This document shows, piece after piece, positions 10,014 to 39,390 of a stretch of DNA of 64,000 nt; positions within the stretch are counted from its first letter, which is position 1; each line of letters opens with the position of its first letter. Made by a program: the position numbers and the translations under genes. This DNA comes from a virus (taxonomy: Duplodnaviria > Heunggongvirae > Uroviricota > Caudoviricetes): the IMG/VR virus record IMGVR_UViG_3300032050_000049, positions 30,621 to 94,620 of that record; one strand, given 5' to 3'. The notes below the pieces were generated by a model, which saw only the letters and a list, made by a program, of their open reading frames with translations, made no database searches and had not been told where the DNA came from.

Positions 10014-10024
10014 TTATAGTATAT

Positions 10025-10729: not shown

Positions 10730-10738
10730 TTATAGTAT

Positions 10739-11449: not shown

Positions 11450-11454
11450 AATTT

Positions 11455-11727: not shown

Positions 11728-11766
11728 TCTATTTATAGTTTTGGTTTATAATATGTATATAAACCA

Positions 11767-14217: not shown

Positions 14218-14241
14218 CAGTGTTTTAATATTTATTAAAGA

Positions 14242-17200: not shown

Positions 17201-17865
17201 GTGGGTCAAGTGGTACTAGCGGCACAAGTGGATCAAGTGGAGAATCAGGTACAAGTGGGTCAAGTGGTACTAGCGGCACAAGTGGGTCAAGTGGAGAATC
17301 AGGTACAAGTGGATCAAGTGGGTCAAGTATATCTTTGCAAACTGGCAGTTTATATCCCATAACGGCAAGTAGAGCTATTACTGCAAGTTACGCATTGAAC
17401 GCAACTGGTGGTGGAAGTTCTTTGTATACTGGTAGTACTTATCCCATAACAGCGAGTAGAGCTATTACTGCAAGTTACGCATTGAATGCTTCTGGTGGAG
17501 GTGGTAGTACATTACAAACTGGTAGCACTTATCCCATTACTAGTAGTTATGCTAATTTTGCAATAAATATTGCTGGTAGTGTTACTACATTGGTGGGTAC
17601 TGATATAAATTGGAACAATCCAACTTATGAAAAGAATATTTCAGTTGCAGAGACATATACATTTTCAAATGTTACAACTGGCAGTTCAATTGTGGTTATA
17701 TTGAATAATACAGGCAGCAACAGTATATTATCTACATTTCCAAATAGTGTAAAATGGGCCAATTCATTGCCACCCACAAATATACTATCAAATGCAACTT
17801 CAATTTATACATTTGTAAGAACCAAATTATATGTTCTGGGTAGTTCTACTGAAAACTATCAATAA
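14242..17865 (+). CDS. Giant fibre protein (1207 aa): N-terminal ITDLP module, YPITAS repeats, four collagen-like runs, two cupredoxin-like domains
   Basis: Gly-X-Y runs. Duplicated roughly 110-aa domain with 'SASHPFAL...YQCV[VI]HSGMIG' (H...C-x2-H-x2-M). Confidence 0.75.
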   Translation: MRITDLPQLFTASINDLLYVIDVNDTSSFFSGSSKRIDISTLFSSPSITASFAKKALSASYAKTASYALVSRSSSYAFNATTASYALNAGTKIYTGSVYPITASWAINGGTKLYTGSTYPITSSWALNGGTKLYTSSTYPITASWAITASYALNQTTSGTSGTSGTAGSSGTSGTSGTSGTSGTSGTNGTSGSSGSSGSSGTSATAGTSGLTGSSGTSGTSGSDGTSGSSGSSGSSGTSGIEGGRLFTVTSSGFNYNIAGYTGSFPTITVVRGQLYYFDVSGVSASHPFALRLSSGNTSAVPGTTNNDPVNGLANTNTLIIYRVPEDAPSSIVYQCVVHSGMIGTINIVNQYGTSGTSGTAGTAGSSGSSGTSGSDGTSGSSGSSGESGTSGSSGSSGSSGSSGSSGSSGSSGSSGTSGSDGTSGSSGSSGSSGTSGIEGGGLFTVTSSGFNYNIAGYSGTFPTITVVRGQLYYFNVSGVSASHPFALRLSSGNTATVPGTTNNDPVNGLANTNTLIIYRVPNDAPNSIVYQCVIHSGMIGTINIVDQYGTSGTSGTTGTAGSSGSSGSSGSSGENGTSGTSGSTGTSGSSGSSGSSGTSGTSATAGTSGETFGTSGTSGSTGTSGTSGESGTSGSSGSSGSSGTSGTNGTSATAGTSGETFGTSGTSGLTGTSGTSGSTGTSGSSGSSGESGTSGSSGQSGTSGSSGNTGSSGSSGVSGTTLYTGSTYPITASRAVTASYALNATGGGSSLYTGSTYPITASWALYVVNGTSGTASLNLTNITRSGNGSGSVYNLNNNTFTGTNSLVFLGGITLNNNIDYTLSSGILTFTSPPLLNEEIHVVKFTGGGANGTSGTSGIVGIANAQTFTSNGIATQYALTQSVVRSYDIIVAINGVVQNYSSSYTVTGSTLTLASAPPLNSKVDVRFLGSAAGGGGGGSGTNGTSGSSGSSGTSGTSGSSGESGTSGSSGESGTSGSSGSSGESGTSGSSGTSGTSGSSGESGTSGSSGTSGTSGSSGESGTSGSSGSSISLQTGSLYPITASRAITASYALNATGGGSSLYTGSTYPITASRAITASYALNASGGGGSTLQTGSTYPITSSYANFAINIAGSVTTLVGTDINWNNPTYEKNISVAETYTFSNVTTGSSIVVILNNTGSNSILSTFPNSVKWANSLPPTNILSNATSIYTFVRTKLYVLGSSTENYQ
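14509..14690 (+). repeat. 3 x 60-bp tandem repeat encoding 'GGTKLYTGSTYPITASWALN'
   Basis: Direct repeats visible in DNA and protein. Confidence 0.75.
14710..14950 (+). repeat. Collagen-like Gly-X-Y run 1 of the 14242 protein
   Basis: GTSGTSGTAGSSG... periodicity. Confidence 0.8.
14958..15300 (+). other. Cupredoxin-like domain copy 1 (amicyanin-like ligand spacing)
   Basis: 'SASHPFAL' His, 49 residues, then 'YQCVVHSGMIG' (C-x2-H-x2-M), then 'TINIV' beta-strand. Confidence 0.55.
15298..15548 (+). repeat. Collagen-like run 2
   Basis: GTSGSSG periodicity. Confidence 0.8.
15550..15890 (+). other. Cupredoxin-like domain copy 2
   Basis: Same ligand set 'SASHPFAL...YQCVIHSGMIG'. Confidence 0.55.
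15893..16400 (+). repeat. Collagen-like run 3 (longest, about 170 aa) with two 'SATAGTSGETFGTSGTSG' sub-duplications
   Basis: Gly-X-Y periodicity; internal duplicate blocks. Confidence 0.8.
17040..17330 (+). repeat. Collagen-like run 4 (GTSGSSGESG units)
   Basis: Near-perfect 27-nt sub-repeats 'ggtacaagtgggtcaagtggagaatca'. Confidence 0.8.
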
Positions 17866-20690: not shown

Positions 20691-21869
20691 ATGCCACAAC
20701 CAATATCACAATTAGCAGACTATACAACAATAACAGGATCCGCATTTGTTCCTATTGTTGATGTTAATGAAACAGTATCATCAAAAAACAAAAAGATCAG
20801 TGTAGATGATTTGAGAAAAACTTTCTTTAAAAGTGGAGTTCTTCTTTCATCTTCTTTCACAGAACATACGCCGGGTTTTTATTACTTTGGTGACAATCGT
20901 GATGGTCGTCTCAATTTAACAGGTTCAATTGCCACTGTTAGAACTTTTGTAAGCAGATCGTTCGCAAGTACACAAGATGGCGCACCTGTCGTTAAAAACT
21001 TTAGTTCGTTGTTCATTTCCAGAAGTGTGGTGGTGAGTCCAACCAATAGATGTAGAGGATTGTTGATATTTGTGGATGGTGATGCAACCATCAGTGGTAG
21101 CATAAGTATGACTGCTAGAGGAGCGAGGTTTACAGGAAGCGACGCTTCCTTCACAACAATAAATCCGCCATATTTGGGTGATTACTGGAGCACGCAGTTG
21201 TTTCCGTCTGCGAGTTATTTGAGCAGAGTATTTGCGGTTGGAGCGGCTGGTGGTACGGCTGGCCCCGCTCCATCTAGCGTTGGTGGCGTTGGTGTCACTG
21301 GTATACTGGGAAGAAGTGGAGGTGGAGGAGGCGGCGGTGGACAAGCAGCCGCGGGTGGAGCGGGATCAACAGGCACATCTTTTAGTGGTGGATCTGGTGG
21401 TGGAGGAGGTGGGCCATCTCCAGGAGCAAATGGCTTTGCATTTGGTGGTCAAGGTGGTCCAACGCTTGGTAGCGGCGGCGCCGGATCAGGCAATCCAGGT
21501 GGAATAACGCCAGCTCAGCCGCCCAGTAGTCCACTCCCAGTCTCAGCACCAAGTGGTACTGGTGGATTGTTAATATTAATAGTGAAAGGTAATTTAAGAA
21601 TTGGACCAAATGGATCAATTACGGCTAATGGAATCAGTGGTGGTAATGGACTTGCTGGTTTTGGAACTGCTGGTGGCGGTGGAAGTGGAGGTGGAGTGTT
21701 ATATATTTATTATGGTGGGTCTTTAACAAATAATGGCACTGTAACTGCTAATGGTGGGTCAGGTGGTTTAACTGGTACACCCTCGCCAGCTCTTAATCAA
21801 GGCGGAGCAGGAGGAGCTGGAACTGCGATAATATCAAAATTAAACGTTGCATTTCCAGTAGCAAACTAA
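20691..21869 (+). CDS. Gly-rich solenoid-like paralog 1 with N-terminal ITDL module
   Basis: 'NRCRGLLIFVDGDATISG', 'GTGGLLILIVKGNLRIGPNG', 'GGGGSGGGVLYIYYGG..TNNGTVTANGGSGG'. Confidence 0.7.
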   Translation: MPQPISQLADYTTITGSAFVPIVDVNETVSSKNKKISVDDLRKTFFKSGVLLSSSFTEHTPGFYYFGDNRDGRLNLTGSIATVRTFVSRSFASTQDGAPVVKNFSSLFISRSVVVSPTNRCRGLLIFVDGDATISGSISMTARGARFTGSDASFTTINPPYLGDYWSTQLFPSASYLSRVFAVGAAGGTAGPAPSSVGGVGVTGILGRSGGGGGGGGQAAAGGAGSTGTSFSGGSGGGGGGPSPGANGFAFGGQGGPTLGSGGAGSGNPGGITPAQPPSSPLPVSAPSGTGGLLILIVKGNLRIGPNGSITANGISGGNGLAGFGTAGGGGSGGGVLYIYYGGSLTNNGTVTANGGSGGLTGTPSPALNQGGAGGAGTAIISKLNVAFPVAN

Positions 21870-21881
21870 ATAATTATTTAT

Positions 21882-23006
21882 ATGCCTACAAGAATATCAG
21901 ATTTACCCGAATATACAACAATAACATCATCAGCATTTGTGCCTATTGTTGATGTTAATGAATTGGTAGCTTCAAAAAATAAAAAAATAAGAATTGACGA
22001 TTTAAGAAAATATTTTTTCACAGGCACAACCACCAGCAGTTCTTTCACAGAACATACCCCAGGCCTTTATTACTTTGGCGATAACAGCGACGGACCTCTT
22101 AACTTAACAGGCTCTATCGCCACCGTTAGAACTTTTGTAAGCAGATCCTTCGCAAGCACTCAAGATGGCGCGCCTGTCGTTAAGAACTTCAGTTCATTGT
22201 TCATTTCCAGAAGCGTAGTAGTGAGTCCAACAAATAGATGTAGAGGAATGTTGATATTTGTGGATGGTGATGCAACTATTAGTGGTAGTCTACGAATGAA
22301 CGGCAGAGGTGCTTCCGCGGTTGGAGCTGATGCGTCTTTTACAACAATAAATCCGCCATATTTGGGTGATTACTGGAGCACGCAATTGTTTCCTTCGTCG
22401 AGTTATTTGAGCAGAGTATTTGCTGTAGGCGCAGCAGGTTCAGGCTATGGAACTGATGGGGTAACTGGTGTAAATGGAAGATCTGGTGGCGGAGGAGGTG
22501 GGTCTAGTTATGGTGCACCGACAGCAGGTTCAGGCGCAACCGGCACATCGTTTAGTGGTGGTTCTGGTGGAGGTGGATCCCAGGTTAACGTCATCGCCGG
22601 AGGAAGTGCGAGTGGAAATGGTGGCGCAGGGGGAAATGGCGCAACCGGCCCCGGCGGTACCGGCGGCGGTGGAGCTGGAAATCCAGGCGGCACTCCAAAT
22701 GGAGGTGTAGGAACAGGTGGATTATTAATATTAATTGTACGAGGTAATTTAAGAATTGGGCCAAATGGCAGTATAACATCAAATGGTAGCAATGGCGGAA
22801 ATGCAAGTAGTCCAACGCAGGGCGGAGGAGGAGGTGGAAGTGGCGGTGGGGTGTTATATGTATATTATGGCGGTACACTAACAAACAATGGCACTGTAAC
22901 CGCATCTGGAGGCACCCGTGGCACGGGTGGAAACGTTGCTGGAAACGGTGGAGCTGGAACTGCTATATTATCAAAATTAAACGTTGCATTTCCAGCAGCA
23001 AACTAA
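21882..23006 (+). CDS. Gly-rich solenoid-like paralog 2
   Basis: About 75% identical N-terminal half to paralog 1. Confidence 0.7.
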   Translation: MPTRISDLPEYTTITSSAFVPIVDVNELVASKNKKIRIDDLRKYFFTGTTTSSSFTEHTPGLYYFGDNSDGPLNLTGSIATVRTFVSRSFASTQDGAPVVKNFSSLFISRSVVVSPTNRCRGMLIFVDGDATISGSLRMNGRGASAVGADASFTTINPPYLGDYWSTQLFPSSSYLSRVFAVGAAGSGYGTDGVTGVNGRSGGGGGGSSYGAPTAGSGATGTSFSGGSGGGGSQVNVIAGGSASGNGGAGGNGATGPGGTGGGGAGNPGGTPNGGVGTGGLLILIVRGNLRIGPNGSITSNGSNGGNASSPTQGGGGGGSGGGVLYVYYGGTLTNNGTVTASGGTRGTGGNVAGNGGAGTAILSKLNVAFPAAN

Positions 23007-23019
23007 TATTTAATAATAT

Positions 23020-24054
23020 ATGGCAAATAAACGTATAACAGATTTAACCGAAGCAACTTTTGTAAGTGCGAGTAATTTTTATGTTGTGTATGATCCTACA
23101 GCTACACAAGATCAAAATGCTGATGGTTATACTGATTTTAATAAAAAAGTAAAACTAAAAAATATTTGTACCCAAGTAAGTCAATCAGCCATCACTTGGT
23201 TTGGTACAGGCGCAAATGGTGCTTTAAATACAACAGGTAGTGTTACTTTTACCACTACAAATGATCAAGAAGTATTTGTGAGAAATTATACATCTCTCAC
23301 AGTAAATGCTGGTCATACAATGACTGTAAGCAACAGATGTAGAGGATTGTTGATATATGTTGGGGGAGATTGTACTATAAATGGTACAGTAACAATGTCA
23401 GGCAAAGGAGCCAACTCGGTTGGAACAGCTGCTCATTATGTATATCAATCTAAAAATTACTATGGCAACTTTATTCCCCAATATCAATTTAACAGCGTAA
23501 AATTATATGGATCTGGTAGTGCCGGTGGACCCGCAAATACTGCTGGTAGATCCGCAGGCGAAGGTTATACAGGTGGTGGAGGCGGTGGAGGTGGAACTGG
23601 TGGTGCTGGTGCAGCAGGCACCAGTTGGAGTGGTGGATCAGGTGGAGGTGGTGGACCATCTGCAACTGCAGGCACTATAAATGGTGGTGCTGGTGGTAAT
23701 GGTACAGCTGCGAATACTGGTGGTGGTGCTGGTAATGGTGGTGGCAGTGCTGGTCCAGGTGGTATAGCTGGTGGTACTGGTACAGGTGGTTTGATTATTT
23801 TTGTGGTAAAAGGTACATTTACATTGGGAAATACAGGTGCAATAACTGCAAATGGTGTTGCGGGTGGAAATGGTAGTGCAGGAGGAGGAGGAGGTAGTGG
23901 AGGTGGAAGAATAGTTGTATTATACAATCAAAATTATATAAATAATGGTGGTACTATTACTGCAAATGGTGGAGCTGGTGGAGGAACTGCTCCAACTGCT
24001 GGTGGCAGTGGGGGAGCCGGTAGCATAACAATAAGAGAAATAGGAATTTGGTAA
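23020..24054 (+). CDS. Gly-rich solenoid-like paralog 3
   Basis: Same motif set (NRCRGLLIYVGGDCTING; GGGGSGGGRIVVLY). Confidence 0.7.
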   Translation: MANKRITDLTEATFVSASNFYVVYDPTATQDQNADGYTDFNKKVKLKNICTQVSQSAITWFGTGANGALNTTGSVTFTTTNDQEVFVRNYTSLTVNAGHTMTVSNRCRGLLIYVGGDCTINGTVTMSGKGANSVGTAAHYVYQSKNYYGNFIPQYQFNSVKLYGSGSAGGPANTAGRSAGEGYTGGGGGGGGTGGAGAAGTSWSGGSGGGGGPSATAGTINGGAGGNGTAANTGGGAGNGGGSAGPGGIAGGTGTGGLIIFVVKGTFTLGNTGAITANGVAGGNGSAGGGGGSGGGRIVVLYNQNYINNGGTITANGGAGGGTAPTAGGSGGAGSITIREIGIW

Positions 24055-24071
24055 AATATTTATAAAGTTAT

Positions 24072-25313
24072 ATGGCAATACCATCACAAGCAATATCTCA
24101 AATGACTACCTTGGTAGGTAGTAATCGTAACGACAATTGTTTATTTACATTGTATAATGCATTAATATCGTCCAGTGTCAATCAAAATTTAAAAGCAAGA
24201 ATAAGTACCCACGAACAATTTTATAGCAACAACAATACCGTCATAAATCAAGGTACTTATAATAATTACTTTGGAACAGGCAAAGATGGTAGTGTAACCA
24301 TAAGTAGCAGTGCGCAAATAAGTTCATCCACATCTCCAGCTGGATTAAATAATATTAGTCGTGAATTTGGCGACCCAGTTATAAAAAACTTTCAAAATTT
24401 AACCATCAACAGTGGTGTATTGTTCAGCCCATTAAGAGCTTGTAGAGGAATGATAATATATTGTACTGGCAATTTAACAGTAAACGGCACTTTGAGTATG
24501 ACTGGTAAAGGTGGAGGCGTTGGTTCTAAAGTCGCGTCTCCTATTGGATTTGCTACAAGCACCGATTCAAGATATGATTTGGTGGATGCTACATTATATT
24601 TTAACAATTTTTCATCAAGCACTGCAGGTGGAAGAGGAATACCTACACATTGGAATTGGGCGCCTAGTGGTAGTATTTGGTTTAATAATTATAAGATTAG
24701 AGTGCCATTGAGTGGGAGTGCTGCTGGAGGAGGACCAAATAATGGTGGTAGTGCGGGAATATTTTGTTGTGGAGGTGGAGGTGGGGGTGGTCAATCAAAC
24801 CCTGGCGCGGTAAGGGCAGGAGGATCCGGTGGTAGCGGAACTATATTTCTAGGAGGAGGGGGAGGAGGAGGAGGATCATACGGCGGCGGCGCCGGCACCA
24901 ACGGCATATTTGAAGCTGGTGGAATTGGCGGATTTGGGCCTAATCCAGGATTAGGCCCAAATGGTTCTGGCGGAGGTGGAGCTGGAACACCTGCTGGACC
25001 TGGCTCCGGAGGCGCTGGTAATACAGGCGTTGGTGGATTAATTATATTAATAGTACGTGGTAATATTACAATAAACGGCACAGTTTCTAGTGGTGGCGCA
25101 AATGGAGGTAATGGAACTACTGGAGGTGCTGGAGCTGCTGGCGGTGGCGGTGGAAGTGGCGGTGGTAGGATAATAATTATTTACGGCGGTACATATAGTA
25201 ATGTTGGTACCATTGTGGTTAATGGTGGCTCCGGCGGCGCCGGTGGCCCCGGCGCACTCACTGGTGGTGCTGGTGGTGCGGGTTCTATAACTATAAGAAG
25301 GGTAAATGTTTAA
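24072..25313 (+). CDS. Gly-rich solenoid-like paralog 4
   Basis: RACRGMIIYCTGNLTVNG; GGGGSGGGRIIIIYGG. Confidence 0.7.
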   Translation: MAIPSQAISQMTTLVGSNRNDNCLFTLYNALISSSVNQNLKARISTHEQFYSNNNTVINQGTYNNYFGTGKDGSVTISSSAQISSSTSPAGLNNISREFGDPVIKNFQNLTINSGVLFSPLRACRGMIIYCTGNLTVNGTLSMTGKGGGVGSKVASPIGFATSTDSRYDLVDATLYFNNFSSSTAGGRGIPTHWNWAPSGSIWFNNYKIRVPLSGSAAGGGPNNGGSAGIFCCGGGGGGGQSNPGAVRAGGSGGSGTIFLGGGGGGGGSYGGGAGTNGIFEAGGIGGFGPNPGLGPNGSGGGGAGTPAGPGSGGAGNTGVGGLIILIVRGNITINGTVSSGGANGGNGTTGGAGAAGGGGGSGGGRIIIIYGGTYSNVGTIVVNGGSGGAGGPGALTGGAGGAGSITIRRVNV

Positions 25314-25319
25314 AATTTT

Positions 25320-26543
25320 ATGGCTACACAAATATCAAGTTTAACAACACTAGTTAATGGCGTAAACAGTTATGATTGTTTTTTGCCATTGGTTGATCCA
25401 ACATTAGCATTAGATTCTCGTAATGTTAAAATTAGAATAAGTACCCACAATGAAATGTTCAGCAACAACTTTGCTGTAGCTAGTTTGAGCAGTTATGCAA
25501 ACTATTTTGGAACAGGCAAAGATGGTAGCTTAACCATAAGCAGCAGTGCTCAAGTAAGCGCTTCATTGAATAATATTAGTCGTGAATTTGGCGACCCAGT
25601 TATAAAAAACTTTCAAAATTTAACCATCGGCAGTGGTATATTATTTAGTCCACTAAGAGCTTGTAGAGGTATGATAATATATTGCACAGGCGATTTAACG
25701 GTGAATGGTACCATAAGTATGACTGGTAAAGGTGGAGGCGTTGGTTCTAAAGTCGCGTCTCCTATTGGATTTGCTACAAGCACCGATTCAAGATATGATT
25801 TGGTGGATGGCACATTATATTTCAATAATTTTTCATCAAGTACAGCGGGTGGTTATGGAATACCTACGCATTGGAATTGGGCGCCTAGTGGAAGTGTTTG
25901 GTTTAGGAATTATAAGATACGAGTGCCATTGAGCGGAAGTGTTGACGGTGGCAATGGTGCATCGACCGCTGCGGCTTCGGGTAATGCGGGATCAGCTGGT
26001 ATATTTAGTTGTGGTGGCGGCGGTGGTGGTGGTTCCGGAGAATCGCAGTATGGTACTTTTGGATCAGGAGCTTCTGGAGGCAGAGGAACTATATTTTCTG
26101 GTGGTGGCGGTGGAGGAGGCGGCGGCGGTGGATGTTGTGGTGGCAATGTACCTGGTACATCTGGTATTCTTGAAAGAGGAGGAGCAGGGGGAGCTTCTCC
26201 TAACGGCCCAGCGGGTGGAGGAGCGGGAACTACAACTACTGGTGGAAACGGTACATTAGGTGTTGGGGGATTATTAATATTAATTGTACGTGGAAATATA
26301 ATAATTAATGGAACTATTAGTTCAAATGGAGCTAGTGGTGGAAACGGAGTACGTATTAGTAAAGGATCTGGTGGAGGAGGTGGAAGTGGCGGTGGTCGAA
26401 TAATTATAACTTATGGCGGTACATACACTAATGCGGGTTCCGTTGTTGCAAATGGTGGATCAGGTGGTTCTGCCAGCTCTGGCGGTGGTCCAGGTGCGTC
26501 TGGTGGTGCTGGATCTATAACTACAAGAAAGATACATATATGA
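25320..26543 (+). CDS. Gly-rich solenoid-like paralog 5
   Basis: Close paralog of 24072..25313. Confidence 0.7.
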   Translation: MATQISSLTTLVNGVNSYDCFLPLVDPTLALDSRNVKIRISTHNEMFSNNFAVASLSSYANYFGTGKDGSLTISSSAQVSASLNNISREFGDPVIKNFQNLTIGSGILFSPLRACRGMIIYCTGDLTVNGTISMTGKGGGVGSKVASPIGFATSTDSRYDLVDGTLYFNNFSSSTAGGYGIPTHWNWAPSGSVWFRNYKIRVPLSGSVDGGNGASTAAASGNAGSAGIFSCGGGGGGGSGESQYGTFGSGASGGRGTIFSGGGGGGGGGGGCCGGNVPGTSGILERGGAGGASPNGPAGGGAGTTTTGGNGTLGVGGLLILIVRGNIIINGTISSNGASGGNGVRISKGSGGGGGSGGGRIIITYGGTYTNAGSVVANGGSGGSASSGGGPGASGGAGSITTRKIHI

Positions 26544-26908
26544 GAGATAAAATTATAATATATAGCGTTCATGACAAAACGAGCAGAGAATTTGTTGCTG
26601 CATATGGTAACAGAAACGACGTTACTGTGTTGGAAGATGACGGATATAGTGTTCGAATAAAATATCCATACATTAGTGCTTTTCCAACTGTAATAATAAA
26701 TACACCTTCATATACGGAGTCTTTTATTGTAGATGAAGGTGGAGGCGGTGCATTTGTAAATTTAGATTCTATTGGAAATGAAACAATAGTGCCAGAAGAT
26801 GTAGAATATATTAGATCTCCTAAAGATTGGAATGAAGTACAACAACGTATTGATTATTGGGAAAACAAAGTGCCCAATTGGAAACAAACTGATACTAGAT
26901 ATTTATGA
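26540..26908 (+). CDS. Hypothetical protein; paralog of 28174..28503
   Basis: 'IHDK.SREFVAAYGNRNDVTVLEDDG...RIDYWENKVPNWKQTD' is shared with the 28174 protein. Confidence 0.55.
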   Translation: MRDKIIIYSVHDKTSREFVAAYGNRNDVTVLEDDGYSVRIKYPYISAFPTVIINTPSYTESFIVDEGGGGAFVNLDSIGNETIVPEDVEYIRSPKDWNEVQQRIDYWENKVPNWKQTDTRYL

Positions 26909-27579
26909 CAAGATATACCATTTTAGGCGAACGTAGATCAGGTACTAATTTTTTGCAACATTGTATAACTGACAACTTCAATTTACAATTAGATTGGTTA
27001 AAAGGATGGAAACATTTTTTTGGATGTAATGGTTATGAAGATAAATTGAAGAATAACCAAGACGTAATATACTTGTGTATTGTTAGAAATCCAATTGATT
27101 ATTTTGTATCATTTTATAATTCTAAATTGATGCAAAGTGAAGAACGTACAAAAGATATTGAAACGTTTTTATTATCAGAATTTTATTCAGTTTATAACTA
27201 TAAAAACGGATTAATTGACGTATCAGACGACTATAATTTTAAAAATAACAATAAGCGTTACAAAAACATATTTGAAATGCGATCCGTTAAATGTAAATAT
27301 TTGTTAGATGATATGCCTAATTTAGTGAGTAAATATCATTTTATAAGATATGAAGATTTAAAACATAATACTAATACTGTATTGAATACAATTAGTGATA
27401 AATTTAATCTTATAAAAAAGAATGACAATTATTTAATAAATACAAATTATGTCGGTGTAAAAATTAATGGAGGTGTTATAACAGAAAATTATCAAGTTGA
27501 AGATAAAATAAAACAGATAATATATAACAATATAGATTTATCGACAGAACATAGAATGGGTTATTTGACCGATATATGA
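26905..27579 (+). CDS. Putative PAPS-dependent sulfotransferase
   Basis: 5'-PSB-like 'ILGERRSGTNFL' and 3'-PB-like 'VRNPIDYFVSFY'. Confidence 0.6.
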   Translation: MTRYTILGERRSGTNFLQHCITDNFNLQLDWLKGWKHFFGCNGYEDKLKNNQDVIYLCIVRNPIDYFVSFYNSKLMQSEERTKDIETFLLSEFYSVYNYKNGLIDVSDDYNFKNNNKRYKNIFEMRSVKCKYLLDDMPNLVSKYHFIRYEDLKHNTNTVLNTISDKFNLIKKNDNYLINTNYVGVKINGGVITENYQVEDKIKQIIYNNIDLSTEHRMGYLTDI

Positions 27580-28139
27580 AATTATACTCATATGATATAA
27601 CTGAATTTAATTTTAAAGAGCAATTACAAACTGTTTTGAACGTGTCTAATTTAGATGATTTGGGGGAAAACAAAGATAAAGAGAAACTGTATTCTGAGTA
27701 TATTTTGGGTAAACAGTTTTTAGATATGTATGTACAGTTTATAAAAAAATATGTTAGAAATTTGTACGATGACGTTATAGCATATCAAACTAAACCAGTA
27801 TGTAGATTGGTATATAAAAATAAATTAAATATGCATAAACTTCATAAAGACAAGTGGTATAGAAGAAATACTATTTATAGTGATATGCAGATAGATAATA
27901 TTTTTTTACCATTTACAAATGCTTTTGATACAAACACAATTTGGACTGAATCAGTTGAAGACAGTCACGATTTTTTTCCGATAAATTGTGATTACGGACA
28001 ATTTGTACACTGGGATGGTTGCAATTTACTTCACGGTAATAAATTTAATAATACTAACAAAACAAGACTGAGTATAGATTTTAGAGTTTATAAATACAAA
28101 AATTTATTACACCCAGAGTATTCTTTATTGAATTTTTAG
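27576..28139 (+). CDS. Hypothetical protein with a weak HxD...H...RxS (Fe/2OG dioxygenase-like) pattern
   Basis: 'SHDFF', 'LLHG', 'RLSIDFR'. Functional call is speculative. Confidence 0.5.
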   Translation: MKLYSYDITEFNFKEQLQTVLNVSNLDDLGENKDKEKLYSEYILGKQFLDMYVQFIKKYVRNLYDDVIAYQTKPVCRLVYKNKLNMHKLHKDKWYRRNTIYSDMQIDNIFLPFTNAFDTNTIWTESVEDSHDFFPINCDYGQFVHWDGCNLLHGNKFNNTNKTRLSIDFRVYKYKNLLHPEYSLLNF

Positions 28140-28173
28140 AAGAAAAACTATTTATTAGTTACACAAAGAGATT

Positions 28174-28503
28174 ATGAGAGATACAATTATAATACATAAT
28201 ATTCATGACAAAGCGAGTAGAGAATTTGTTGCTGCATATGGTAACAGAAATGATGTTACTGTATTGGAAGACGACGGACTAAATGTACGTTTAGCGTTTC
28301 CTTATATCAGCGCTTTTCCTACTGTTGTAATACCCACACCATCTTATGAAAATACAGATGAAAATGGAACAGTAACCCAAATCGAAGGATCTATAGAATA
28401 TCTAAGAGCACCTGAAGATTGGAATACAGTACAAACACGAATTGATTATTGGGAAAACAAAGTACCCAATTGGAAACAAACTGATAGTAGATACAAACAA
28501 TAA
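28174..28503 (+). CDS. Hypothetical protein; paralog of 26540..26908
   Basis: About 60% identity with the 26540 protein. Confidence 0.55.
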   Translation: MRDTIIIHNIHDKASREFVAAYGNRNDVTVLEDDGLNVRLAFPYISAFPTVVIPTPSYENTDENGTVTQIEGSIEYLRAPEDWNTVQTRIDYWENKVPNWKQTDSRYKQ

Positions 28504-28508
28504 TTAAA

Positions 28509-28883
28509 ATGAATAATCAACCAACCGTAACTTGGAAAGTAACAAATTTAGATTGTTATCCTACATATCAACAAAACACCGATGTTGTATTTACAGTACA
28601 TTGGGATTGTTTGGGGCAAATTGTTGTATCCACTGGCAGTTTGAGTGGATCTACATACAACAGTAGATTATATGGTACCACTGGTGTACAATACCACAGT
28701 GGATCTTCATTTATACCATACAATCAATTAACTCAAGATGATGTGCTTGGATGGACATTTGATAGTATGGGAACTGGCAGCAAGTATAATATTGAAAAAG
28801 GAGCTGTATCAAGTTTATACACTCAGATAAATCCACCTGTAGTACAACCACCTTTGCCTTGGGTAACAACTGGTTCTATTTGA
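28509..28883 (+). CDS. Hypothetical protein (124 aa)
   Basis: ORF. Confidence 0.5.
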   Translation: MNNQPTVTWKVTNLDCYPTYQQNTDVVFTVHWDCLGQIVVSTGSLSGSTYNSRLYGTTGVQYHSGSSFIPYNQLTQDDVLGWTFDSMGTGSKYNIEKGAVSSLYTQINPPVVQPPLPWVTTGSI

Positions 28884-28931
28884 TTTATAATAAGTACTGT
28901 TGTGTAAATAAAAACTATATATTAAAAAGTT

Positions 28932-29111
28932 ATGGAAGAAAACAAACAAATAAATTTAGCTGATTTGACGCTCGTAGAATTAAAAGCAATATCTTATGAT
29001 GAAATTGTCAAATTGAATTTGGCACAAAACAACTTAAGAGTTTTAAATCAAGAATTATATAACCGTCAACAAAAAGGCGTAGAAGGTGCTTCGCCAGTAA
29101 ATCAAAATTAA
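28932..29111 (+). CDS. Small protein (59 aa), paralog of 29121..29315; below the ORF-track length cutoff
   Basis: Own translation: MEENKQINLADLTLVELKAISYDEIVKLNLAQNNLRVLNQELYNRQQ... Confidence 0.45.
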   Translation: MEENKQINLADLTLVELKAISYDEIVKLNLAQNNLRVLNQELYNRQQKGVEGASPVNQN

Positions 29112-29120
29112 AATAGTTTT

Positions 29121-29315
29121 ATGGAAAAAAAGATATCTGACTTAACCGTGATTGAATTAAAAAGTTTAGCATATGATGAATTGGCTAAAATTGAATTGTG
29201 CCAAAATAATCTTCGTGCATTGAATCAAGAAATTACAAATAGATTGCAACCACAGTCAAATCAATTGAGTGGGAATTTTGATAGCCCCCCCACCGCTACA
29301 ACCGAAACCGTTTAA
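29121..29315 (+). CDS. Small protein (64 aa), paralog of 28932..29111
   Basis: Shared 'DLTVIELKSLAYDELAKIELCQNNLRALNQEI'. Confidence 0.45.
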   Translation: MEKKISDLTVIELKSLAYDELAKIELCQNNLRALNQEITNRLQPQSNQLSGNFDSPPTATTETV

Positions 29316-29575
29316 ACGGGATCACCATAGATATTGAAGCCTTTGGGTGGTTGTGGTACCACTTCTTCTTCAATTGTCTTAATAGCATACAATTTGCTAT
29401 CTAGTGGGGCTAGTCTATATTCACACTTGATCTTGGTTTCTTTGAAATAAGATTCAAGCGCTTCAGTGATACTTGGATGAATGATTTTACGGTTATCATT
29501 CACAAGAGTCCATCTATCGCCAGGTGGTACTCTAGTAGCAATCAATTCATTGTGTTCTGTAATTTTTGTAGCCAT
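29312..29575 (-). CDS. Hypothetical protein (87 aa); first gene of the minus-strand block
   Basis: ORF; stop codon overlaps that of the convergent plus-strand gene. Confidence 0.45.
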   Translation of the reverse strand: MATKITEHNELIATRVPPGDRWTLVNDNRKIIHPSITEALESYFKETKIKCEYRLAPLDSKLYAIKTIEEEVVPQPPKGFNIYGDPV

Positions 29576-29581
29576 AATATA

Positions 29582-29875
29582 TTATCGGGGTTTGACAAAG
29601 AATATTTTGTGCATTCCTGTCATATAAAAAGTATTCAAATCCATATTCAACGCTTTACATTCCAATTCTCCCGGCCAAAATCCTTTCCAAGAAGCAAATT
29701 GTTTATCGTGGTTAGTACATTCACAACTTATTTTTTGACCACCACATTCACTACATCTTTCAATGTCACACTTTTTCTTGTGTATTTTACCCGCAACAAC
29801 TTTGCAACTAAAACAATTGTCTAGTTCCACTTTCTGACACACTGGAGTTTGTTTCTTTTTCATAATTAACAACAA
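29582..29875 (-). CDS. Cys-rich zinc-finger-like protein (97 aa)
   Basis: Multiple CxxC pairs. Confidence 0.5.
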   Translation of the reverse strand: MLLIMKKKQTPVCQKVELDNCFSCKVVAGKIHKKKCDIERCSECGGQKISCECTNHDKQFASWKGFWPGELECKALNMDLNTFYMTGMHKIFFVKPR

Positions 29876-30078
29876 TGTCCTTTCTTGTCATCTGCAGTAA
29901 AATTATTTAGATTATAGTTACTTGAACGTATATCCCGCAATCCATACAATTCTCTGTACATATCATATACGATATGATCCAAATCTTTTACTGTCATTGG
30001 AATGCTTTTGGTTTTATCTACTTCTTGCATTTTCAAACAATGTTTTTTGATGATAGAATCAATTTGTTCTTTCATCAA
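29866..30078 (-). CDS. Hypothetical protein (70 aa)
   Basis: ORF in tight overlap series. Confidence 0.4.
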   Translation of the reverse strand: MMKEQIDSIIKKHCLKMQEVDKTKSIPMTVKDLDHIVYDMYRELYGLRDIRSSNYNLNNFTADDKKGHCC

Positions 30079-30320
30079 TTTTTAGTAGTGTTAATAATTT
30101 TACCGTCACAATTATAATAGGCTCTATAATAATTGGTATGCACAGTATATACACTGTTTGTTGAATTTTCAATCATACTATAAGTAATATAGTCGTTGTT
30201 AATTGCATGTACTCTACTACAGGGTGGTAGATTTTCTAATGCTCTATTATAACTATATCTTAGATACATTCCACTAGTACAACCAGTAGACAACAATGCA
30301 ATAATCAATAAATTCTTCAT
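30075..30320 (-). CDS. Putative lipoprotein (81 aa)
   Basis: Signal peptide plus lipobox 'LLSTGC'. Confidence 0.5.
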   Translation of the reverse strand: MKNLLIIALLSTGCTSGMYLRYSYNRALENLPPCSRVHAINNDYITYSMIENSTNSVYTVHTNYYRAYYNCDGKIINTTKN

Positions 30321-30541
30321 TCTGTTAGCTCACGTTCTTCTACTGAATAATTATGACTTTCTTTGTACATATCACAATATTTCTGAGCATTTTCTTTTTT
30401 GAGATATACCTTCTCAATTGCCAGATCGTTTCCTCTATATGACATAATGAGGTATACCTTAAGTTTTGGTGGTTCTACTGTCATAGCAGTCAATAGAATT
30501 GCTGTTAGCCCCCCCACTATAATTTTATTAAAACGATTCAT
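30317..30541 (-). CDS. Hypothetical membrane-anchored protein (74 aa)
   Basis: N-terminal hydrophobic segment. Confidence 0.4.
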   Translation of the reverse strand: MNRFNKIIVGGLTAILLTAMTVEPPKLKVYLIMSYRGNDLAIEKVYLKKENAQKYCDMYKESHNYSVEERELTE

Positions 30542-30746
30542 ACTTACTTAGTTTGTTTTTATAACGTTGAATTGTAATGTGATCTTCATCCATATGATTG
30601 TTAGCTTTAACGATTTCTTTACTGAATCGTTCCACTTCATCACACAGATAACGAATGTCTTCACACAGTTTTGCATCAAGCAAATTATTGCAGTTGTAAC
30701 TTGTGAACTGTCGTAGTCTACTAATTACTTCTTGGTTAGTCTTCAT
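30528..30746 (-). CDS. Hypothetical protein (72 aa)
   Basis: ORF. Confidence 0.4.
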   Translation of the reverse strand: MKTNQEVISRLRQFTSYNCNNLLDAKLCEDIRYLCDEVERFSKEIVKANNHMDEDHITIQRYKNKLSKYESF

Positions 30747-30927
30747 TGGTTCTGTAAATTACTTTATCAATGGTAATACCCTTCTTGGAAGATTTGGGTC
30801 CATATAAAGCACCCCATTGATTTCTGCTATTGATATAAGTCATTAAATCTTTTTTAATAACTTCCGCATCCAAATCATTGAAATTTGGTGGTAGATTAAT
30901 TTTTAAATAATATTTTGGATCACTCAT
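30736..30927 (-). CDS. Hypothetical protein (63 aa)
   Basis: ORF. Confidence 0.4.
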   Translation of the reverse strand: MSDPKYYLKINLPPNFNDLDAEVIKKDLMTYINSRNQWGALYGPKSSKKGITIDKVIYRTNED

Positions 30928-30931
30928 AATT

Positions 30932-31129
30932 TTACCAGTGATGAATAATGTTTGCGATAATGAAAGCGCATGTAATAAAGTTTACCAGAACAATGATAAA
31001 TCTCAAGAAAAAACTAGCAAGAGCATAACTTACAGGCAATACAGGCACATCAGGCTTGCATTCATCTGTATGACCTACACGATGGTCAATAGTACGTGCT
31101 AGAGTTAAAAAAAACTTATTGGTTGTCAT
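30932..31129 (-). CDS. Hypothetical membrane protein (65 aa)
   Basis: C-terminal hydrophobic segment. Confidence 0.35.
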   Translation of the reverse strand: MTTNKFFLTLARTIDHRVGHTDECKPDVPVLPVSYALASFFLRFIIVLVNFITCAFIIANIIHHW

Positions 31130-35086: not shown

Positions 35087-35794
35087 ATGGAAAACCTTTA
35101 TGTTGAAAAAATACACAATTCGATTGCCAAAGAATTGATTGTTAAACATCATTATACACACAAGTGGACCATAGCCGAGTTGTGTATCGGAATTTACGAC
35201 AAAAGCAAACGTAGTGTATTTTTTGACGTTCCTACGCTGGTTGGCGCAGTTGTATTTGGACCCACTGCTGGCGCAAATGTGGCTAGAAGTGTGTCTCCAC
35301 TATTAAATCATTCCAATTTATGGGAATTGAAACGATTGTGGGTAGCAGATGAATTGGGTAAAAATACTGAAAGTTGGGTTATTGGTCAATGTTTGAAATA
35401 TATCAAACAACATCACAGTGAAATAAAGTGTTTGATCAGTTATGCTGATCCTGATGCTGGACACATTGGTACCATATATCAAGCTACCAATTGGCTGTAT
35501 CAAGATATTGAAAGACGCAAAGGCACTAGTGGTTATATTGTTAGTTTTGACGGTGGTATTAAATGGCAACACTCACGTACATTATTCAACAAATATGGAA
35601 CATTCAACTATAATAAATTGGTGGAAGTGTTACCCAGACCATTTAAGATCAAAGAATTATCAGTTAAAGAACGATATATTTATCCTTTGGGAAGCAAAGT
35701 GGAAAAGAAAAATCTGATTAAAAGTTTGAATTATCCCATTATAGAATATCCCAAACTCAAATCAGATAAAGAAACTGTAGTGGAATTTAATTAA
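35087..35794 (+). CDS. Hypothetical protein on the opposite strand within the minus block; weak GNAT/Mom-like resemblance (speculative)
   Basis: 'KHHYTHKW', 'WELKRLWVADELGKN'; orientation anomaly. Confidence 0.55.
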   Translation: MENLYVEKIHNSIAKELIVKHHYTHKWTIAELCIGIYDKSKRSVFFDVPTLVGAVVFGPTAGANVARSVSPLLNHSNLWELKRLWVADELGKNTESWVIGQCLKYIKQHHSEIKCLISYADPDAGHIGTIYQATNWLYQDIERRKGTSGYIVSFDGGIKWQHSRTLFNKYGTFNYNKLVEVLPRPFKIKELSVKERYIYPLGSKVEKKNLIKSLNYPIIEYPKLKSDKETVVEFN

Positions 35795-38045: not shown

Positions 38046-39056
38046 TTATTCCTTACTTCCAAGTAGGTAAGTATTGCTAATAGCCTTGAAACTAAACTCC
38101 CGTTCAAGACCACGAACAACTACACCTTCACGGTCAACACCCATATTCAATACACTCTTACCTTCAGCATACTTCAACATATTATCAACCAAGTTTTCAT
38201 TGGGTAATACATATCCATACTTTTCAAGTACAGGTACCATTGGCACTTCCAACCTAAACAACAACCACTCCAGTTCATCAAAGAACATACGACGACCCTT
38301 ATCAATGTCATAACCAGTAAAGAAAAACAACTTGTGGTCGCTCAATCCATACAAATTACCATTGATATTTGAACCAATCAATTCTCCCTGAAGCGCAATG
38401 TTCTTGCCATACTTAGTCAACTTATCCTTCAACTCAAGCATATTAGCCATACGCCATAGACTATTGTCATTGGTTTCAGTCAACTCCCAATTACGTCCAC
38501 AAACACCAAATACACCATTATTGAAGTAACAAGTGAAACTAGTACCATCCAACTTCTCAGTGATATACACTCGTTCTCCAACAGGCACAAAACCAATGTC
38601 ACTTTCAAAGTTCTGAATACGAGTTTCATCCGTCTTTGGAATAAAACTAGGAAATGTACCCTTGATCTTTCCAGCCAATTGAGCAGGAATAGGAGGTTCA
38701 TACTTGACAATATCAAGAGCCTCTGTCAAATCATCACCTTCCTTTGGATCAATTATACCATCTGGAATTGGAGTCAATAGACCTTGACTCAATTGTCCAC
38801 GCAACTTGATGGTCTTAAGACGAAATCCTTCAGCGGTTCCCATACGCTTGAAACTACTCTTACGCAAGAATTCAAACTGAGGTCGGATAGGTAAGAAGCT
38901 GTCAATTTCATAATAAACAGCCAAGTCACCTACCTTATATTCTCCAACTTTCACGACTACATTCCACCCCTTTACCTTAGCCACAACAATGGCATCAGCA
39001 CCAACAATAGGTTGAATGTCAACAATCTTTACAACACTAGCTAACTTACGTTCCAT
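38046..39056 (-). CDS. ATP-dependent RNA ligase, DraRnl/DRB0094-like with N-terminal OB-like domain
   Basis: Motif I 'EKLDGTS'. N-terminus 'VVKIVDIQPIVGADAIVVAKVKGWNVVVKVGEYKVGDLAVYYEIDSFLP'. The ATG at 39054-39056 follows 'AAAGGA'; the ORF-track start at 39098 is a TTG overlapping the upstream gene. Confidence 0.65.
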   Translation of the reverse strand: MERKLASVVKIVDIQPIVGADAIVVAKVKGWNVVVKVGEYKVGDLAVYYEIDSFLPIRPQFEFLRKSSFKRMGTAEGFRLKTIKLRGQLSQGLLTPIPDGIIDPKEGDDLTEALDIVKYEPPIPAQLAGKIKGTFPSFIPKTDETRIQNFESDIGFVPVGERVYITEKLDGTSFTCYFNNGVFGVCGRNWELTETNDNSLWRMANMLELKDKLTKYGKNIALQGELIGSNINGNLYGLSDHKLFFFTGYDIDKGRRMFFDELEWLLFRLEVPMVPVLEKYGYVLPNENLVDNMLKYAEGKSVLNMGVDREGVVVRGLEREFSFKAISNTYLLGSKE

Positions 39057-39072
39057 ATTTATCCTTTCTAAA

Positions 39073-39390
39073 TTAATAAGAGTCAAACTCAACCTCAAGT
39101 GAATTGAAATTGATAGTAGACGGATCTACATTCAAATCAATACCACCATCAACAACAAAAACCTTCAAATCCTTCTTAATCTCGGTAGAAGGTCCACCAC
39201 TACAGCTACAACCAGAGCTATAACACCAAGTGACGTTACCATCCTTGTCTACACCAACACCCTCATAAGAGTGATGACCATAACCCCAATTCTCATTCTC
39301 AATCTCCTTGAAAATGACAACGATATCATCATCAAACTTGCTCTTAGGAAGAGCGTCCCAATTCTGTACAATGTAATCTACGATATTCAT
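39073..39390 (-). CDS. Hypothetical protein (105 aa)
   Basis: ORF with upstream promoter motif. Confidence 0.45.
   Translation of the reverse strand: MNIVDYIVQNWDALPKSKFDDDIVVIFKEIENENWGYGHHSYEGVGVDKDGNVTWCYSSGCSCSGGPSTEIKKDLKVFVVDGGIDLNVDPSTINFNSLEVEFDSY

Follow-up and report, generated by a model that had tools for sequence, protein, structure and literature searches.

An optional fibre-linked module with a predicted sulfotransferase and oxygenase in a lineage of large freshwater phages

In the DNA analysed here (the window: 64,000 nucleotides of IMG/VR record IMGVR_UViG_3300032050_000049, positions 30,621 to 94,620), we read one region, from its sequence, as a real but optional accessory module of three genes: a small paralog (A), a putative sulfotransferase (ST), and a putative 2OG/Fe(II) oxygenase. 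Glycine-rich fibre paralogs form a tandem array in this lineage of uncultured large freshwater phages, and the module is found at the distal end of that array. As a whole, the locus is best explained as a shuffled, fibre-linked module whose enzyme pair tailors a sugar late in infection, a reading to which we would give an even chance. Hydroxylation and sulfation of a sugar is its most likely predicted chemistry, one that has never been demonstrated experimentally for a phage.

A preliminary description had proposed an ST with a partner gene between two paralogs, and all of them are present on the + strand at the positions that it gave. Its enzymes, the paralog bracket, the presence or absence of the genes in relatives and a distant kinase homolog stand, whereas its insertion model, its boundaries for the variable unit and its view of a rarely described function do not. 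The features concerned are as follows.

24072-25313, + strand: 413 aa, putative fibre paralog rich in glycine; chimeric when compared with L014, a phage with an empty site
25320-26543, + strand: 407 aa, putative fibre paralog rich in glycine, immediately preceding the module; ATGA overlap with A
26540-26908, + strand: paralog A, 122 aa, cysteine-less thioredoxin-fold protein, part of the variable module
26905-27579, + strand: putative PAPS-type sulfotransferase (ST), 224 aa, from Pfam, motifs and family alignment; ATGA overlaps on both sides
27576-28139, + strand: putative 2OG/Fe(II) oxygenase, 187 aa, PhyH-like or "sporadic carbohydrate cluster" type, from an invariant motif and TIGR04324
28174-28503, + strand: paralog B, 109 aa, resident thioredoxin-fold fibre-partner gene; 34-bp gap upstream

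The sulfotransferase and the oxygenase

The ST exceeds the Pfam gathering cut-offs of both Sulfotransfer_1 (27.1 bits against 22) and Sulfotransfer_2 (22.9 against 22), the profile search suggested earlier. The two stretches first taken as its PAPS-binding motifs, ILGERRSGTNFL (residues 6-17) and RNPIDYFVSFY (residues 61-71), hold the PSB loop, G8-E-R10-R-S12-G13-T14, and the 3'PB, R61...S69. In a 43-sequence alignment G8, R10, G13 and R61 are invariant, and S12, T14, P63 and S69 are at least 90% conserved; in the family of 226 relatives the PSB and 3'PB residues are invariant or nearly so. The family profile aligns both motifs and a C-terminal YE segment to SULT7A1-PAP (5x2b), placing the PSB loop with KSGTHW and ivRnPidwlnS with IVRNPKDTAVS of that structure. 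Thus, the residues do map to a PAPS site, as had been claimed, and the identity of the enzyme is borne out by the cut-offs, the conserved motifs and the profile alignment together. Two proteins, the ST and a small paralog, were given structure prediction, and the ST has the sulfotransferase α/β fold. We conclude that the sulfotransferase fold is real and that the PAPS-binding motifs are conserved; PAPS-dependent transfer itself is predicted. The invariant K36-H37, 24 residues ahead of R61, are candidate catalytic residues; the spacing of His108 and Arg130 in SULT1A1 is similar.

Sulfotransferases of solved structure (such as SULT1B1 2z5f, TPST1 5wri, StaL 2ov8 and Stf0 1tex) share 9 to 19% sequence identity with the ST of the window. 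Cytosolic SULTs have substrate-capping loops and a C-terminal extension, both of which are missing here because the protein is only 224 aa long. The residue preceding SGT is K in known sulfotransferases, but R or C in this family. Furthermore, in contrast to the characterised Sulfotransfer_1/2 enzymes of Pfam, the family is almost wholly viral or metagenomic and unannotated, with at least 180 relatives in IMG/VR. The same family is common in giant-virus genome bins.

For the partner gene, a weak HxD...H...RxS pattern had been proposed, and it is real: H90-K91-D92, H153 and R164-x-S166 are invariant in a 36-member family alignment. The RxS motif, which binds the C5 carboxylate of 2OG, is expected about 10 residues past the distal His, and R164 stands 11 residues past H153. 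The HWD at 145-147 was considered as a metal site and ruled out because most relatives have Q in place of H145. NCBIfam TIGR04324 ("sporadic carbohydrate cluster 2OG-Fe(II) oxygenase") matches the protein with an E value of 7.7e-8, at 32.2 bits against a curated cut-off of 150 and over residues 132-181 alone. The window protein has no Pfam match; PhyH is matched by 4 of the 36 relatives (E 0.0033 at best), and JGI names some relatives PhyH-family dioxygenases. A search of its profile against PDB sequences gave chance matches only. The motif therefore supports a putative 2OG/Fe(II) oxygenase, though not a curated member of TIGR04324. With TIGR04324/PhyH oxygenases it has the HxD...H triad and RxS in common, and its own relatives occur in sugar-biosynthesis clusters; its length is 187 aa, as against about 211 aa in relatives outside the lineage and 248 profile positions in TIGR04324.

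Paralogs, fibre genes and the history of the module

The bracketing paralogs, put earlier at roughly 60% identity, are 64% identical across 121 aligned positions (E 5e-56), far beyond chance. The small paralog has a thioredoxin fold. Thioredoxin and glutaredoxin proteins carry CxxC; instead, A and B have (H/E)DKxSRxF at that position (HDKxSREF) and a hypervariable β-hairpin insert, which in A is central and accompanied by an AFPTV cis-Pro-type loop. There is no cysteine anywhere in A or B, and therefore they are not redox-active thioredoxins. Unlike the named families, the A/B gene always lies beside fibre-type genes and belongs to no Pfam family. B is present in every architecture, empty sites included, and is 94-98% conserved. 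In a Mu-like tail module, a remote homolog of the small protein overlaps the fibre-position gene; in the Mu-like phage L155 this gene has a 63-aa segment in common with the window fibres and is homologous to the N-terminal region of the 25320-26543 product. From these associations, A and B are best described as partners of fibre genes and not insertion scars, and the family evidently pairs with tail-fibre genes in other, unrelated phages too. This previously unnamed, cysteine-less thioredoxin-fold family accompanying tail-fibre genes is a result that stands alone.

The "fibre" label of the glycine-rich genes comes from genomic context and the one short homology to the Mu-like gene; no direct fibre-family match was found for them. 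Both are mosaic. The N-half of the 24072-25313 product is 89% identical to fibre 1 of L014, and its C-half is 88% identical to fibre 2, the gene that precedes B in that phage. The N-half of the 25320-26543 product is 93% identical to fibre 2 of L014, whereas its C-half reaches at most 69% to any relative, and the divergence of this C-half goes together with that of A and the ST. Successive ATGA overlaps join this fibre gene, A, the ST and the oxygenase.

Related metagenomic phages show three layouts of the region.

Empty site: L014, L100/L143, L102/L135, L104
Module after both terminal fibres: the window, L009-L012, L019
Module between the terminal fibres: L001-L006, L015, L020, L021, L105

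The module is thus optional and shuffled, and the comparison of related genomes proposed earlier yields clean empty sites in L014, L100, L102 and L104. The fibre-A-ST-oxygenase block is 94% identical between L012 and L015, at different positions. The variable unit is not the ST and its partner placed between duplicated flanks, as had been suggested; it consists of A, the ST and the oxygenase, travelling with the upstream fibre. Furthermore, comparison with L015 locates a break within the module.

27400-27460, no strand: homologous-recombination breakpoint in the 3' end of the ST gene, seen as a shift in identity to L015

Identity to L015 is about 75% to the left of this point and 96-99% to the right (the oxygenase, B and beyond). 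Taken gene by gene, the oxygenase is 95% but the ST 75% identical between the two phages. A breakpoint within the ST gene means that each of the recombining genomes must already have carried the cassette. Homologous recombination explains the movement of the module, as seen in the shared block, the breakpoint and the mosaic fibres.

The preliminary description had instead pictured a cassette inserted by duplication. A two-gene ST cassette, recently inserted by the same event that made its flanking paralogs, would fit the 64%-identical direct gene repeats that flank the pair in the window, the single-copy empty site of L014, and the near-identical A/B stretches (80% over the first 174 nt; 45 of 46 nt near the 3' end), which could mediate excision. 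However, across phages A orthologs share 70% and B orthologs 94% identity, more than the 63% between A and B, so the duplication is older than the split of the window phage from the compared relatives. Where the module lies between the fibres, a whole fibre gene separates the oxygenase from B, and the small protein belongs to a conserved fibre-partner family. The GC content of the ST and oxygenase, 0.249, is the second lowest of 628 windows, owing to amino-acid composition; their GC3 (0.19-0.23) is native to its neighbourhood (0.15-0.29). No foreign composition, transposase or integrase was found at the cassette, nor any terminal repeats besides the old A/B paralogs. Native GC3, the old duplication and the breakpoint within an ST that both parents carried argue that the module is not a recent foreign insertion; nothing in the sequence points to recent foreign acquisition, and the insertion model, already weakened, now seems most improbable.

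Glycan ancestry and the APS-kinase homolog

ST relatives at 43-49% identity lie among GT1, GT2, GT6, GT11, GLF and methyltransferase genes. Similarly, oxygenase relatives at 45% identity lie among GT1, GT2 and GT11 genes together with a DegT aminotransferase, an NDP-sugar epimerase and an RmlC-like isomerase. Viral glycosyltransferase clusters thus house the nearest relatives that either enzyme has outside the lineage, which makes a sugar or glycan the best-supported acceptor. The earlier suggestion of a sulfated glycan or other acceptor on the fibres or the host is thereby narrowed towards a glycan. More distant ST relatives (32-41% identity) are stand-alone genes: those of small phages adjoin a DNA ligase, those of giant viruses are close to ribonucleotide reductase, and glycan genes are absent around both. 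The two enzymes occur together in this lineage only and have partly separate histories, so their functional coupling stays a proposal.

The following genes elsewhere in the window may also be relevant.

54863-55300, - strand: APS-kinase homolog, 145 aa, from Pfam APS_kinase and motifs; possible PAPS supplier
55297-56690, - strand: overlapping pair of genes, 215 and 249 aa, whose weak matches are glycosyltransferase-like (GT2, Anp1)

The APS kinase homolog reported about 27 kb away is present, 27.3 kb from the ST. It scores 59.8 bits against a Pfam APS_kinase cut-off of 21.1, and its best PDB match is the APS kinase 8a8h (E 7.5e-13). Its P-loop (GQPNSGKTT), DGDTLR, YSISGRKSNVR and VSPFR align to solved APS kinases, and the set that it shares with CysC (PF01583, TIGR00455; 8a8h, 2yvu, 1m7g) comprises the P-loop, DGDxxR, (F/Y)SxxxRxxNxR (here YSxxxRxxNxR), (I/V)SP (here VSP) and YEPP. 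Residues 3-105 align to 25-127 of 8a8h, and 115-142 to 157-184. CysC proteins are about 175-210 aa long, whereas the window protein has 9 residues in place of about 29 between the core and the C-terminal YEPP and so lacks the mobile lid. It reaches about half of the TIGR00455 cut-off (68.3 against 138.7 bits) and stays below those of all other apsK models of NCBIfam. Thus, the homolog is real, but calling it an APS kinase is qualified by the missing lid, the NCBIfam cut-offs and its place in a separate conserved block.

This operon-like block, GT-GT-kinase-DHFR-ThyA, is conserved in a wider set of phages than the ST lineage, including phages on contigs that end early and in which no lineage-type ST was found. 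The two glycosyltransferase-like genes, weakly assigned, may build the glycan, and the kinase is a possible supplier of PAPS for the ST. A tblastn search of 50,697 phage records revealed no homology of this kinase to those of ViI, M6, SP10 and ΦW-14 (one unrelated weak match); their sole likeness to it is a ThyA-superfamily neighbourhood (PMC5889632).

The acceptor and its biological meaning

In the reading that we prefer, the ATGA overlaps couple the module translationally to the upstream fibre gene, and homologous recombination among fibre paralogs and between A and B shuffles module and fibre together; some relatives are without the module. The enzymes descend from families in viral glycosyltransferase clusters, and for this reason tailoring of a sugar, late in infection, is the most likely task of the pair. 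In the order that we infer, the oxygenase would hydroxylate or oxidise the sugar, and the ST would move sulfate from PAPS onto a sugar hydroxyl. The most plausible carrier would be a fibre or virion glycan, or else a product of glycosyltransferases that the phage itself encodes. The host would provide the PAPS, and the lid-less APS-kinase homolog might add more.

The glycan-cluster ancestry fits equally well with sulfation (and hydroxylation) of host LPS, capsule or EPS during infection, the virion being left unmodified, which would block superinfection or keep progeny off lysed cells. Serotype-converting glycan modification by phages is established, and this phage has glycosyltransferase-like genes and an LpxH-like phosphoesterase. 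However, exclusion tends to be an early or lysogenic function, and these genes are tied by translational coupling to structural genes of the late phase. Membrane anchors and export signals were not noted in the sequences, and no integrase or lysogeny genes were seen within the window. We consider such remodelling of the host surface unlikely.

The coding strand also switches at the module, and since such boundaries typically collect cargo, its position alone may mean nothing. The ST and oxygenase could then be AMG or moron genes whose target is a soluble metabolite or something else in the cell, placed here only through a recombination hot spot at the end of the fibre array. The stand-alone setting of the most distant ST relatives, the separable histories of the two enzymes and the listing of phage sulfotransferases as AMGs of unknown role (PMC10580990, PMC8290583) agree with this. 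The closest outside relatives embedded in glycan clusters, the tight coupling to the fibre and A, and the joint divergence of fibre C-half, A and ST speak against cargo without a tie to the fibres, which we regard as rather unlikely. Very unlikely, in our view, is direct modification of the fibre protein, with the oxygenase hydroxylating fibre residues and the ST sulfating tyrosine or the new hydroxyls, although the phage has collagen-repeat and glycine-rich proteins and tyrosine sulfation is what tyrosylprotein sulfotransferases do.

Returning to the sugar-tailoring module, an extended version appears quite unlikely to us: a sulfated, hydroxylated glycan on the fibres or elsewhere on the virion, made wholly by phage proteins (glycosyltransferases, the lid-less kinase as source of PAPS, oxygenase and ST), with the thioredoxin-fold protein as adaptor or carrier on the fibre. 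If true, presence or absence of the module would switch virion surface charge, and hence host range or defence evasion; it would also be without precedent, both as a sulfated virion glycan and as a demonstrated use of PAPS by a phage in biosynthesis. The literature searched describes no sulfated virion glycan of a phage. Virus-encoded virion glycosylation itself is known from chlorovirus and mimivirus glycans. The capsid and tail glycans of mycobacteriophages are a further case (Freeman et al. 2023, as cited in PMC12619734). As in virion-glycosylating phages, predicted sugar-modifying enzymes lie near structural genes in the window phage and could decorate virion proteins; the module itself has no glycosyltransferase, and the fibres are putative glycan carriers.

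Phage sulfotransferases and cysC are listed AMGs, none of them validated (PMC10580990, PMC8290583, PMC12713726). With these listings and the IMG/VR relatives counted above, "rarely described" was an overstatement at the level of annotation. Surveys treat such genes as part of the sulfur cycle, whereas the present ST lies in a polymorphic module with an oxygenase and a fibre partner, within a structural operon. Its ancestry in glycan clusters, traced here, instead suggests a role in biosynthetic sulfation. The locus thus provides a testable alternative to the sulfur-cycle reading, with a defined enzyme pair, a traced glycan-cluster ancestry and natural relatives with and without the cassette. 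If confirmed, sulfation would join the known phage chemistries for decorating virions or host surfaces, and viral cysC-like genes would need to be reread as suppliers of PAPS for biosynthesis.

Enzymes encoded at the end of the glycine-rich array

The preliminary description had recognized four ORFs at the distal end of the glycine-rich putative fibre array, the outer two being about 60% identical. Our coordinates match for all four, each lies on the + strand, and the outer paralogs share 64% identity (E 5e-56). The observation is confirmed, and its interpretation is partly supported. The genes concerned, with a remote kinase gene, are as follows.

24072-25313, + strand: fibre 1, glycine-rich putative fibre
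25320-26543, + strand: fibre 2, glycine-rich putative fibre directly upstream of A
26540-26908, + strand: A, cysteine-less thioredoxin-fold paralog, 122 aa
26905-27579, + strand: ST, sulfotransferase, 224 aa
27576-28139, + strand: OX, 2OG/Fe(II) oxygenase, 187 aa
28174-28503, + strand: B, paralog of A, 109 aa
54863-55300, - strand: APS-kinase homolog

ATGA stop/start overlaps link fibre 2, A, ST, and OX, and a 34-bp gap lies upstream of B. A promoter/terminator scan of the module gave no informative signal. Further downstream, two adjacent ORFs (28932-29111, 59 aa; 29121-29315, 64 aa) are mutual paralogs (59% identity over 39 aa), are 89 to 95% conserved across all relatives, and directly precede the strand switch.

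ST had been proposed to be a PAPS-type sulfotransferase. It exceeds the Pfam gathering cut-offs of both Sulfotransfer_1 and Sulfotransfer_2. In this superfamily, the PSB and 3′PB motifs bind the 5′- and 3′-phosphates of PAPS. A 43-sequence alignment shows no variation at G8, R10, G13, K36, H37, or R61 and at least 90% conservation at S12, T14, P63, and S69. Furthermore, the family profile aligns with mouse SULT7A1-PAP (5x2b) at the PSB loop, the R...S 3′PB, and the C-terminal YE segment, and the AlphaFold model has high confidence scores (pLDDT 92.2, pTM 0.89). Together, the Pfam scores, motifs, alignment, and model thus point to a sulfotransferase fold whose PSB and 3′PB residues would map to a PAPS-binding site. 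A single-sequence search of the PDB with ST returned no match, and the 226 relatives in a large protein database are nearly all without annotation.

The ST family is also common in giant-virus genome bins (GVMAG contigs; L022-L098, IMG/VR), and a set of smaller phage contigs always has it flanked by a DNA ligase and a conserved 233-aa protein; neither setting has any relation to fibres. In L021 (IMGVR_UViG_3300042908_000899, 10001-11209), a 23-bp deletion near the ST 3′ end causes a frameshift, by which a truncated ST (residues 1-205, without the invariant E215) runs into OX as a single 402-aa ORF. It may be read as a natural fusion, as an inactivating mutation, or as a misassembly; being a possible artefact or mutant on a single contig, with E215 lost, it was dropped as evidence.

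The HxD...H...RxS pattern noticed earlier in the partner of ST proved invariant in 36 relatives (H90-K-D92, H153, R164-x-S166, with canonical spacing), which suggests a 2OG/Fe(II) oxygenase. An 'HWD' at 145-147 was rejected as the metal site, since most relatives have Q in place of H145. A local NCBIfam match names TIGR04324, "sporadic carbohydrate cluster 2OG-Fe(II) oxygenase" (E 7.7e-8, far under the cut-off); four relatives match PhyH weakly, and several carry the JGI name PhyH-family dioxygenase. A single-sequence PDB search with OX found no match, and its family profile gave only chance Fis matches. We regard both enzyme identities as highly probable.

History of the module and its fibre partners

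Relatives from freshwater metagenomes and IMG/VR were compared for the presence or absence of the cassette (A, ST, and OX); an empty layout and two occupied ones were found.

Table. Layouts of the array end (L numbers denote the compared loci; L014 is the empty-site reference)
(a) Empty: fibre-fibre-B. L014, L100/L143, L102/L135, L104, and the divergent L106
(b) After both fibres: fibre-fibre-A-ST-OX-B. Window, L009-L012, L019
(c) Between fibres: fibre-A-ST-OX-fibre-B. L001-L006, L015, L020, L021, L105

The fibre-A-ST-OX block is 94% identical in DNA between L012 (layout b) and L015 (layout c), and the remaining fibre (89.5% identical) sits to one side of it in L012 and to the other in L015. 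We are strongly confident that the module is optional.

The preliminary description had read ST and its partner as a cassette inserted between duplicated flanks; several observations argue otherwise. Across phages, A-type orthologs are 70% and B-type orthologs 94% identical, and A and B share 63%. As both ortholog values exceed the A-B identity, the duplication predates the split of the window phage from these relatives. Identity between the window and L015 rises from about 75% to 96-99% near 27,450, inside ST, and stays high through OX, B, and beyond, which indicates that the cassette was already in both recombining parents. ST and OX have a GC content of 0.249; since their GC3 equals that of their neighbours, this is an effect of amino-acid composition, and a foreign origin argued from low GC was rejected. 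Window fibre 1 is a mosaic of the N-half of L014 fibre 1 (89%) and the C-half of L014 fibre 2 (88%), and fibre 2 joins the N-half of L014 fibre 2 (93%) to a divergent C-half, which diverges jointly with A and most of ST. The overall picture shows an old accessory module that homologous recombination has reshuffled within a hot spot of the host-range type, unlike a recent foreign insertion.

The A/B family is narrow (47 clusters, each at least 55% identical), with conserved ends and a hypervariable middle. Its members lack any cysteine and conserve (H/E)DKxSRxF at the CxxC position. The motif recurs in the remote homologs that a profile search across 1.8 billion representatives brought up. One of these belongs to a Mu-like tail module, where it overlaps the stop codon of the gene occupying the tail-fibre position; a Collar-domain protein and a tail-fibre-assembly protein come next. 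A 63-aa segment of that tail-fibre-position gene matches the glycine-rich paralogs of the window (46% identity, E 4e-15), and this match is the sole homology support for the putative fibre label. Direct comparisons of the window's glycine-rich genes gave no fibre-family support, and these paralogs showed no similarity to the T7-tail/Gly_rich_2 protein (1111-3909) or to the PDB. The Mu-like pairing and the common segment make glycine-rich fibre and thioredoxin-like protein a conserved pair. A and B are fibre-partner proteins, not insertion scars.

A and B belong to a wider cysteine-less thioredoxin-fold family, unnamed and without a Pfam family, that accompanies tail-fibre genes in unrelated phages. 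The profile search gave 58 representatives, and members occur on the Mu-like myophage contigs L155 (6001-6309) and L156; a C-terminal DUF4376 domain is present in one of them. The array itself (20691-26543) comprises five tandem paralogs of 392, 374, 344, 413, and 407 aa in which long poly-Gly runs occur; relatives differ in the number and order of copies, and single genes are chimeric, with N- and C-halves from different paralogs. Within the structural region 1111-17865 (+), Laminin_G_3 (ConA-like lectin) domains occur in six proteins, and a protein of 1207 aa has nine collagen-repeat stretches; these may be carbohydrate-binding fibres and hydroxylation targets.

At near-identity, the DNA of 24000-31000 had no match among 50,697 phage records, and tblastn of ST, OX, or B against the same records likewise gave none. 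The nearest ligase relatives are 44-48% identical. This lineage is absent from cultured and GenBank phages; it occurs in lakes, for example in JGI 3300042448, 3300005805, and 3300035670.

The APS-kinase homolog and other window genes

The APS kinase homolog mentioned in the preliminary description was located at 54863-55300 (-), and every one of its best PDB matches is an APS kinase (E 7.5e-13). It has the P-loop, DGDxxR, YSxxxRxxNxR, VSP, and YEPP motifs, about 29 residues of the mobile lid are replaced by 9, and the TIGR00455 score is 68 bits against a cut-off of 138.7. The gene lies in a GT-like/GT-like/kinase/DHFR/ThyA block that 20 IMG/VR contigs conserve at 41-94% identity. Kinase contigs stop short of the fibre-array end, all empty-site contigs end before the kinase region, and kinase and cassette are both present on only one other contig, 3300042908_000899. 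The ThyA neighbourhood resembles that of 5-hmdU DNA kinases (PMC5889632); such a role was rejected, as the protein has no homology to known 5-hmdU DNA kinases. Its GT-like neighbours had no PDB sequence matches, and no other sulfur-pathway genes were found within the window.

The thymidylate synthase ThyA (53222-54373, -) is, at 383 aa, a long form that contains insertions and keeps an intact LPPCH active site; its sequence led us to reject an intein. The end of its gene is overlapped by that of a GIY-YIG homing endonuclease (52564-53244, +) whose DNA-binding domain is I-TevI-like, reminiscent of T4 td/I-TevI. A prepilin-type N-terminal methylation motif (PF07963) marks a protein of 166 aa (56865-57365, -) that sits between the GT/kinase block and another glycosyltransferase (58381-59406, MJ1255/VC2487 family) with an LpxH-like phosphoesterase (59403-60113).

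Elsewhere, a strong Mom-family protein (35087-35794, +; PF25680, E 5.8e-44) suggests adenine DNA modification; its gene is the only + strand gene within a - strand block, and a Mom homolog also borders the ST-containing glycan cluster of L164. Two RNA ligases (Rnl2-like/PHA02142 and T4 Rnl1-like) and an AAA_33 P-loop kinase (38046-39098, 41320-41778, 44171-45262; -) suggest an RNA-repair set, and an SPFH/Band-7 protein lies at 39481-40386.

Acceptor, function, and novelty

ST and OX occur together within ±10 kb in this lineage only. Among the nearest outside relatives, those of ST (43-49% identity) occupy glycosyltransferase-rich clusters on contigs >100 kb, and those of OX (45%) have comparable neighbours.

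Table. Neighbours of ST and OX relatives
L007 (ST): GT1/radical-SAM/methyltransferase
L164 (ST): GT1, Gly_transf_sug, GT6, GT11, UDP-galactopyranose mutase
L166 (ST): GT1, GT2, methyltransferases
L161 (OX, 45%): GT2, NDP-sugar epimerase/dehydratase, RmlC-like isomerase, methyltransferases
L162/L163 (OX, 45%): GT1, GT2, DegT aminotransferase, GT11, hexapeptide acyltransferase

These glycan-cluster kin, in agreement with the TIGR04324 match, make a sugar the best-supported acceptor. Against it, the more distant ST relatives (32-41%), many of them in giant-virus bins, are stand-alone genes that adjoin a DNA ligase or lie close to ribonucleotide reductase, and among 81 viral ST loci no glycan or fibre partner recurs in the distant members. 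On balance, a sugar acceptor is slightly more likely than not. The glycan may be carried by the virion, the host envelope, or another structure; late-operon coupling to the fibre gene favours the virion, a location to which we give a rather low probability. The most likely function, held with evenly divided confidence, would be late glycan tailoring, in which OX would hydroxylate and ST would O-sulfate the glycan.

Phage sulfotransferases and cysC have been recorded as unvalidated auxiliary metabolic genes (PMC10580990, PMC8290583, PMC8066274, PMC12713726), and the phrases viral, virus-encoded, and phage-encoded sulfotransferase were absent from the literature searched. Virion glycosylation is established in mycobacteriophages and DNA glycan hypermodification in other phages (cited in PMC12619734; bioRxiv 10.1101/2023.12.21.572611); the preprint mentions neither sulfate nor sulfotransferase. 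ST and OX are new members of known superfamilies. The novelty lies in how the parts are combined, with an optional ST-oxygenase module linked both to a fibre gene and to a thioredoxin-fold protein and with a PAPS-kinase-like gene inside a GT block; the biosynthetic use that this combination implies is new as well. If true, glycan hydroxylation with O-sulfation would be a first, in a lineage that is uncultured.
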